The notes beneath the pieces are model-generated. The model searched no databases, was not told where the DNA came from, and worked only from the letters and a program-made list of their open reading frames with translations. 2,825 bases of DNA, from the NCBI RefSeq assembly GCF_003334255.1, contig NZ_QOWU01000130.1; one strand, 5' to 3'. Positions 457 through 652 of this stretch are shown in pieces. Numbering within the stretch: the first letter of the stretch is position 1; every line of letters begins with the position of its first letter. Origin of the DNA: Escherichia coli. Its GTDB lineage: Bacteria; Pseudomonadota; Gammaproteobacteria; Enterobacterales; Enterobacteriaceae. Made by a program: the position numbers and the translations under genes.

Positions 457-486
457 GGGTGTCGGGGCGTAGCCCTGACCAGGTGG
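457..486. repeat. Left arm of a 30-bp perfect inverted repeat (GGGTGTCGGGGCGTAGCCCTGACCAGGTGG)
   Basis: Reverse complement of 965-994 equals 457-486 exactly (30/30); a 31st flanking pair (456 A / 995 T) also matches. Confidence 0.95.
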
Positions 487-519
487 TAATCGTATCGGCG
501 TGCGCGGTTATACGATTAC
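486..519. repeat. Hairpin-forming inverted repeat (GTAATCGTAT / ATACGATTAC, 10-bp perfect stem, 14-nt GC-rich loop)
   Basis: 486-495 is the exact reverse complement of 510-519; it directly abuts the left arm of the 30-bp inverted repeat. Confidence 0.8.
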
Positions 520-539
520 ACATCCTGTCCCGTCATCGG

Positions 540-600
540 AGTTGTTTTTGCGGTGTTCCTGCGGCAAATTGAGCGGGCATAGCAACACCTCAAAACAACT
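540..600. repeat. Imperfect inverted repeat (AGTTGTTTT / AAAACAACT, 9-bp stem, ~43-nt loop) upstream of the terminator hairpin
   Basis: 540-548 pairs with 592-600; the loop contains a TGCGG...TGCGG direct repeat. Confidence 0.6.
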
Positions 601-625
601 ATCATCAGGAAATTGACTTTGACGG

Positions 626-652
626 CCCCCTGACACAGGGGGATTTTTTTTT
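626..652 (+). terminator. Rho-independent terminator-like hairpin (CCCCCTG-aca-CAGGGGG followed by A then T9)
   Basis: 7-bp GC-rich stem 626-632/636-642, 3-nt loop, then a T9 run at 644-652 on the + strand. On the - strand the stem is not followed by a T run, so it is unidirectional. Confidence 0.6.

Follow-up and report, generated by a model that had tools for sequence, protein, structure and literature searches.

Layout of the locus

We analyzed a 2,825-nucleotide (nt) stretch of Escherichia coli DNA (contig NZ_QOWU01000130.1; called the window below and always meant at its full length), which is a 2,748-bp circular plasmid with positions 1–77 repeated at 2749–2825. The plasmid is a pBuzz-like rolling-circle replicon with two inverted origins of transfer (oriTs) of the I-complex (R64) type: it carries a Rep_1 initiator gene, a conserved putative double-strand origin (dso), and two nick motifs on opposite strands. 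Our subject is the interval from 457 to 652, in which a sequence-only reading had placed two stem-loops and a terminator hairpin and had proposed that 486–652 forms one element, either a small structured RNA or a single-strand origin. We found each of the three at the coordinates it gave (486–519, 540–600, and 626–652). Their unity, in contrast, did not hold, as the interval comprises two elements: an oriT (oriT1) and then a separate, optional module that begins just past the nick. The features of both, in order of position, are as follows.

457–533, + strand: oriT1, I-complex (R64-type, MOBP), K/Z-like subtype, assigned by homology to the IncK2/Z oriT
461–479, + strand: 8-bp inverted repeat of oriT1, GTCGGGGC / GCCCTGAC (461–468/472–479), a hairpin in the DNA and RNA folds
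486–519, + strand: NikA-type inverted repeat (stem-loop 1), with a perfect 10-bp stem GTAATCGTAT / ATACGATTAC (486–495 with 510–519)
521–528, + strand: nick-region motif CATCCTG/T (CATCCTGT), the slash marking the predicted nick between 527 and 528
540–600, + strand: stem-loop 2, in which the −35 region GTTGTTTT pairs with the body motif AAAACAAC; part of the window’s best fold, lineage-specific
542–547, + strand: putative −35 box TTGTTT, separated from the nick by exactly 14 nt and invariant in 9 unit variants
565–570, + strand: putative −10 box CAAATT, within the invariant CGGCAAATT, separated from the −35 box by a 17-nt spacer
577–652, + strand: predicted noncoding RNA of ~76 nt, with an inferred start and its 3′ end at the T-run 644–652
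626–652, + strand: intrinsic terminator with a 7-bp stem (6 G-C pairs), a 3-nt loop, A, and T9

Judged by its homologues, stem-loop 1 belongs to a known kind of oriT, which the sequence-only reading had not considered, and this part of the interval is already known. oriT1 is 91% identical over 81 nt to a sequence of the IncK2/Z plasmid CP088870 that lies directly upstream of nikA and a MOBP relaxase gene; there, the oriT is 16 nt from the start of the nikA-like gene, and the relaxase gene follows. The 10-bp stem is identical in the native IncK2/Z oriT, and other oriT subtypes carry compensated stems, so that the stems covary between subtypes. The 8-bp repeat at 461–479 is likewise conserved in native oriTs and presumably corresponds to the R64 “repeat B” of Furuya and Komano. 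The motif YATCCTGY matches the window twice (521–528 on the + strand and 919–926 on the − strand), against 0.21 matches expected, and both matches lie beside oriT repeats; the exact nick position within 521–528 is one that we take from the RP4/R64 consensus. About 2,900 records of the PLSDB plasmid database carry an oriT1-type element (457–533), many of them conjugative.

NikA is expected to bind oriT inverted repeats of this sort (PMC9282650). At oriT1, the NikA/NikB relaxosome of a coresident K/Z-type helper plasmid would bind the repeat at 486–519 and, by analogy with R64 and RP4, would nick the + strand at CATCCTG/T (527/528) and transfer it 5′ to 3′. Since conjugative transfer proceeds in the 5′-to-3′ direction, a transfer that begins at oriT1 would bring the sequence starting at 528 into the recipient ahead of the rest.

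The nick region also offers two side observations. In one metagenome contig (L030), the nick motif reads ATCCTGTCCTGTCCTGTCATC, a 5-nt tandem duplication of TCCTG exactly at the predicted nick, which may be the scar of relaxase-mediated cleavage and rejoining. The bom region of ColE1/pMB1 appears to start with nearly the same GGGTGTCGGGGCGCAGCC...TGACC as oriT1 (window 457–480 compared with ColE1/pBR322 bom), with a seemingly patchy resemblance in the postnick DNA (CATCAGAG...ATTGT...TGCGGTGT).

A candidate transcription unit beside the nick

The module includes the terminator that the sequence-only reading had described as a strong one with no gene in front of it. Both points were borne out. 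The hairpin CCCCCTG-ACA-CAGGGGG (626–642; ΔG −12 kcal/mol) is followed by A and T9 (644–652), and it far outranks the five other terminator-like sites of the window (six in all, against 3.5 ± 2.3 expected from shuffled sequences). The + strand holds no open reading frame (ORF) of at least 60 aa before it, the longest being 48, 40, and 38 aa. The rep gene, which that reading had put ~830 bp upstream around the circle, has its stop at 2573, about 800–830 nt away. We also looked for coding capacity in the module itself. No conserved ORF across the unit was found by sequence inspection, and a coding role was rejected for the two annotated or evident candidates, a 145-aa minus-strand ORF annotated on pPM18 and a 22/38-aa + strand ORF, as both are broken or frame-shifted in the sister lineage L004.

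Among the mapped relatives, the module (about 533–663 of the window) is a discrete indel. It is present in the window’s own family, in pPM18, and in plasmids of the L011 type, whose Rep is only 49% identical; it is also found on ~3.08-kb circles without a full rep gene, in fragments integrated into F-type plasmids, and in about 20 metagenome contigs. A 1.8-kb HTH-Rep plasmid, a colicin K plasmid, and the ColE1-type Yersinia pestis plasmid pPCP1 carry it, and no Rep_1 gene was seen on any of these three. Conversely, it is missing from L010, whose Rep is 98.5% identical to that of the window, and from L008; the pBuzz-type relatives L006, L007, and L013 have 18 nt in its place, and in L009, the body typical of the window (W type) has been replaced. 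Altogether, about 140 PLSDB records carry the module, and the window-type copy occurs in 19 of 5,426 complete E. coli genomes. No chromosomal or phage homologues of it were found. Import from a conjugative plasmid was considered and rejected: the DNA after native nick sites is unrelated, and the copies on “large plasmids” are pieces of small plasmids that have become integrated there.

Nine aligned unit variants share only three invariant blocks, TTGTTTT, CGGCAAATT, and the T-run. The spacer between the two boxes is always 17 nt long and variable in sequence, and in every oriT-linked copy, the −35 box stands 14 nt from the nick. Stepwise outward BLAST searches reached more diverged copies (L009, L039–L043, L042, and pPCP1) and brought the body lineages to at least six (W, F, N, S/P, T, and X), which have in common a −35 box TTGnnT, a 17-nt spacer, and a −10 box CA(A/G)ATT. 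In all lineages, a G/C hairpin with T6–T9 ends the unit, 74–103 nt past the predicted start, and this ending is retained although its stems and loops differ. In most bodies, a 5′ hairpin whose stems are particular to the lineage is accompanied by an unpaired, A/C-rich stretch, in which the motif CAAAAC is common. Units occur singly (as in the window), in pairs (L009 and L039), or in threes (L040, L041, L043, and L020), and each later unit of a tandem array has its own TTGCCT or TTGTCT box, 17-nt spacer, CA(A/G)ATT box, and terminator.

A scan for the boxes through the genomes of 100,044 species returned 21 chance matches in other phyla, Y. pestis, and two probable contaminant contigs. None of the 21 had a G/C hairpin with a T-run at the expected distance, and a scan of the genome collection with a pattern that included the nick motif gave no matches. 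The two contigs are a 569-bp contig of Rhizobium wenxiniae HU50 (L064), identical to the window unit over the ~130–140 nt compared, and a 9.6-kb scaffold of Amphibacillus jilinensis Y1 (L067), identical to the pPCP1 unit over the same length; most likely, both are enterobacterial plasmid contamination of GTDB assemblies.

Some further observations concern other copies. The terminator loop reads ACA in the window (626–642) and TGT in the L004 lineage (L004 5092–5108), which makes the whole L004 hairpin the exact reverse complement of that in the window; the difference looks like the flipping of a palindrome’s loop by template switching, and the length of the T-run varies from T7 to T9. A gene of the ANR family (AraC negative regulator) lies ~0.5 kb beyond the unit arrays of L009, L039, L040, and L043, on the opposite strand and convergent. 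It is seen in several plasmids with two or three units and is absent from the window plasmid.

The copy on pPCP1 (about 2757–2883, minus strand, divergent from rop) has the same TTGTTT, 17-nt spacer, and CAAATT, and like the E. coli units, it contains a 5′ hairpin, an A-rich linker, and a G/C hairpin with T7. Its identity to the E. coli units of the S lineage is about 80%. It differs from them in having no adjoining oriT and in sitting on a ColE1-type replicon. A second, convergent, and partly degraded unit lies at about 2552–2680 on the + strand of the same plasmid (NC_003132.1), with TTGTTT, 17 nt, CAGATT, and a weak terminator; it faces the intact copy upstream of rop. The Y. pestis RNA HmsA/sR084 was tried as a homologue and rejected, as it maps to 9434–9498 and its primers do not match.

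Folding agrees with the sequence-only reading as far as its strength is concerned: none of 200 dinucleotide shuffles folds as well as the segment 440–660 (z scores of −4.1 for DNA and −4.4 for RNA), and stem-loop 2 (about 540–600) appears in its minimum-energy fold with DNA and RNA parameters alike. Neighboring noncoding DNA is also folded (z = −2.8 for 653–914 and −3.5 for 1000–1330), and therefore, foldedness alone does not single out 440–660. Nor did stem-loop 2 hold up as a conserved structure. In L004, its inner helix is 66% paired and four outer pairs are lost, and the sequence that takes its position in lineages N, S, P, and X is unrelated; on this comparative evidence, the 540–600 hairpin is incidental to the window’s lineage. 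An alternative hairpin at 538–589 is 99% pair-compatible, with one compensatory pair in two lineages only, and it is weak evidence because the structure was derived from the alignment of those same two lineages.

We favor, with middling confidence, the reading that the interval consists of a borrowed I-complex oriT (457–533) and a miniature transcription unit (542–652) that yields a small regulatory RNA. A sigma-70-type promoter (TTGTTT, 17 nt, CAAATT) would fire away from the nick, and a noncoding transcript of ~76 nt would end at the hairpin and T9. The RNA would have an unpaired C/A-rich stretch bearing the CAAAAC motif, followed by a 3′ hairpin and U-tail, a layout that makes base pairing in trans its probable mode of action. 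With the −35 box 14 nt from the nick, the footprints of RNA polymerase and relaxosome must overlap, and helper binding and RNA synthesis are therefore likely to be coupled. The proposal of a small RNA ending at the orphan terminator thus survives in modified form, with conserved promoter-like boxes and predicted limits of roughly 577–652, shorter than the transcript of 100–200 nt that had been proposed. The unit would represent a candidate new, previously undescribed family of a known kind of gene, set apart by its unusual fixed position beside the nick.

A number of results weigh against this reading. The match to a promoter is weak (position weight matrix score of 7.5 compared with a mean best of 10.2 in shuffled sequences); a strict promoter scan found none, and a relaxed matrix scan found nothing above shuffles. 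Rfam 15 scans of the window, four module-bearing loci, and pPCP1 gave no family at gathering score, the best subthreshold matches being Trp_leader (18.5 bits against 41) and Hrs1 (29.7 bits against 56.4, on the opposite strand). For the predicted RNA (577–652; ΔG −16.4 kcal/mol), the gain in stability over shuffles is only modest (z = −2.0). A comparison of folding energies between the sense and antisense strands reveals no bias (mean difference −0.24 kcal/mol), and the complementarity of the body to the plasmid’s + strand, the rep leader included, is no better than that of shuffled RNAs. The bodies show little conservation, unusually for a small RNA that acts by base pairing, and many of the lineages are related by duplication and recombination and are therefore not fully independent. 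On the Y. pestis side, the RNA-sequencing catalogue of Yan et al. 2013 (Table S1) lists RNAI, sR084/HmsA, and sR104 on pPCP1 but nothing at the unit (about 2757–2840, minus strand), and a review yielded no additional entry. The case for a small RNA is one of comparative anatomy.

A bolder proposal, which we consider rather doubtful, builds on the position of the unit. It holds that miniature promoter–terminator RNA genes, in one to three tandem copies, are fixed 14 nt past the nick of a borrowed oriT and that the binding of the helper relaxosome and that of RNA polymerase would then exclude or stimulate each other. The small plasmid would sense the presence of a helper, or else outward transcription would open oriT for nicking through the negative supercoiling behind the polymerase. 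If the act of transcription mattered more than the sequence of the RNA, this would explain why the boxes are conserved and the bodies evolve fast.

The rest of the plasmid and the competing explanations

Elsewhere on the plasmid, the following features were identified.

915–1000, − strand: oriT2, inverted, B/O-like subtype, with stem GGAATGTC / GACATTCC and its nick motif at 919–926 (−)
1051–1200, + strand: conserved, highly folded block upstream of the dso, a candidate single-strand origin
1314–1327, + strand: putative dso nick region CCTTGTATTTATAC, conserved in all Rep_1 relatives
1575–2573, + strand: rep, rolling-circle initiator (Pfam Rep_1, PF01446; E = 9e-86), the sole convincing gene

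oriT2 is 96–97% identical to the oriT adjoining mobA(nikA) and a relaxase gene in plasmids typed as IncI1/B/O. Inverted repeats of the window (I1, I2, and I7) lie in it, its stem differs from that of oriT1 and is compensated, and the nick motifs of the two oriTs both point inward. Comparison of the sequence with its Rep_1 relatives makes CCTTGTATTTATAC at 1314–1327 the probable double-strand origin; it resembles the CTTGATA nick site of the pC194 family, and if this likeness is valid, the + strand is the displaced strand. The block at 1051–1200 is conserved in every Rep_1 relative, including those with a Rep of no more than 49% identity. A 16-bp stem lies at about 1137–1175, the hairpin at ~1069–1097 has an indel that preserves the structure, and in the outer stem, an A-T pair is replaced by T-A, a compensatory change.

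Several 2.74-kb E. coli plasmids match the window at 99–100% identity, and the 2,330-bp plasmid pPM18 is about 94% identical to it. Homopolymer tracts of G8 and C8 occur at 68–75 and 749–756, and differences in their length probably contribute to the spread in size (2,738–2,748 bp) among near-identical plasmids. The regions 260–456 and 2570–2720 share 60-nt direct repeats (266–325 and 2621–2680; 82% identical) and contain numerous GAAACGCG/GAAACACG motifs in both orientations. These repeats resemble iterons, and similar repeat DNA is found 5′ of oriT in L039 and L043, beside the unit arrays. The segment between the oriTs (665–914) is inverted relative to rep in the relatives L010 (NZ_CP075675.1) and L013 (CP057655.1), which indicates that recombination between the inverted oriTs flips this segment in nature and argues against a strand-specific essential function there.

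Of the alternatives to a small-RNA gene, the one that survives best, although we regard it as unlikely, is that the terminator is simply an insulator: the hairpin and T9 would stop + strand read-through, whether from rep or from other starts upstream, before it reaches the inter-oriT region, the single-strand origin, and the dso, and the boxes would be no promoter. It gains from the fact that the T9 terminator is the sole strong + strand terminator on the plasmid and that in L010 and L008, relatives without the module, rep is instead closely followed by a strong terminator. The pBuzz-type plasmids L006, L007, and L013, however, manage with neither kind of terminator, and in the window, a terminator of moderate strength is present about 80 nt past rep, so that the T9 terminator need not serve against read-through from that gene. 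Nor would one expect an insulator to come in arrays with two or three terminators, every one of them behind the same boxes at a constant distance, and on pPCP1, the copy does not follow a rep gene.

Two more explanations strike us as improbable, one no more so than the other. According to the first, the module is an extension of oriT in which nick+5 to nick+50 binds a relaxosome accessory protein or a host factor and the terminator hairpin is a passenger. The fixed 14-nt distance from the nick in oriT-linked copies speaks for it, as does the fact that this is the most conserved part of the module. Yet the native I-complex oriT regions, from which the relaxosome comes, do not contain the sequence, and neither do the pBuzz-type oriTs, which are mobilized efficiently; moreover, the sequence is retained on pPCP1 without an oriT and repeated far from the nick in tandem units. 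According to the second, the module is a nonfunctional hitchhiker, a decaying fragment that has spread through its linkage to a successful oriT. Its narrow distribution in PLSDB and in complete E. coli genomes (window-type copy), the fast divergence of the bodies, and the close relatives that do without it would all fit such a fragment. Against this, every lineage has kept the boxes, the spacing of exactly 17 nt, and a terminator that looks functional while the rest diverges, and units have been duplicated rather than eroded.

The single-strand origin or priming signal that the sequence-only reading had offered as its other possibility, in which the folded + strand would recruit RNA polymerase or primase after rolling-circle replication or transfer, fared worst, and we give it very little credence. 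It can draw on the strong single-stranded DNA fold (z = −4.1) and on the position of the module, which lies on the predicted displaced and transferred strand, in what would be the first DNA to reach the recipient. But the module is absent from L010 and from the pBuzz types, and as close relatives with the same Rep and dso lack it, it cannot be the lagging-strand origin of the family; it is also found on plasmids where no Rep_1 gene was seen, and the 540–600 hairpin is not conserved. The CS-6 motif of ssoA-type origins, TAGCGW, has no match in the whole window, and a comparison with 50,697 phage records uncovered no similarity to G4/phiX174-type signals, only chance 28-nt matches to cyanophages (E = 0.1). 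A T-run after the hairpin would be meaningless on single-stranded DNA, and priming at the 5′ end of the transferred strand would allow no more than about 100 nt to be copied. The block at 1051–1200 is a better candidate, and we consider it likely to be the single-strand origin or another core cis element.

Significance and comparison with known systems

Plasmids that have only an oriT and use the relaxase of a helper are now thought to make up a large share of those classed as “nonmobilizable.” To our knowledge, the cargo that travels alongside borrowed oriTs has been little explored. If the unit beside oriT1 is expressed, it would constitute an undescribed family of plasmid-borne small RNAs, carried in the first DNA to enter the recipient and also on the plague plasmid pPCP1, and the fixed 14-nt distance from the nick would tie transcription to DNA transfer in a simple and testable way. 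The consequence for annotation is that the most eye-catching stem-loop of such plasmids is an oriT and not an RNA or a single-strand origin, the latter likely lying elsewhere, at 1051–1200.

Among the closest known systems is pBuzz, a 1,982-bp Rep_1 rolling-circle plasmid with two inverted oriTs and no relaxase of its own, which a B/O plasmid is reported to mobilize in experiments (Moran and Hall 2019, Plasmid 101:10, as cited in PMC9282650 and PMC7448864). The window plasmid is likewise a small cryptic Rep_1 plasmid with two inverted I-complex oriTs and no relaxase gene. It is larger (2,748 bp compared with 1,982 bp), its Rep is only about 72–73% identical to that of the 1.98-kb pBuzz-sized relatives, and it has an extra unit of ~130 bp after oriT1 as well as extra repeat DNA at 1–456.

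Its oriTs resemble those of R64 and the I-complex (I1, B/O, K, and Z), with the 8-bp repeat, the NikA-type repeat, and YATCCTG/Y (nick at the slash) in the same order and at the same spacing, and they are 91–97% identical to native oriTs. They differ in having no nikA or nikB adjoining them. In native I-complex plasmids, the nick is followed by the nik operon promoter region and a mobC-like gene, whereas the postnick DNA of the window is unrelated.

The module shares with ssoA-type origins and with the G4 and phiX174 single-strand initiation signals the property of being strongly folded noncoding DNA on the displaced strand. In contrast to these, it is not conserved along with the replicon, lacks CS-6, and ends in a T-run terminator that makes sense only at the RNA level.

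Set beside the trans-acting, Hfq-type small RNAs of enterobacteria, the unit stands apart in having no Rfam match and bodies that evolve faster than the putative promoter. Nevertheless, its predicted anatomy is like theirs: a length within their range of 70–100 nt, a putative promoter of its own, an A/C-rich segment left unpaired, and, at the 3′ end, a G/C hairpin and U-tail.

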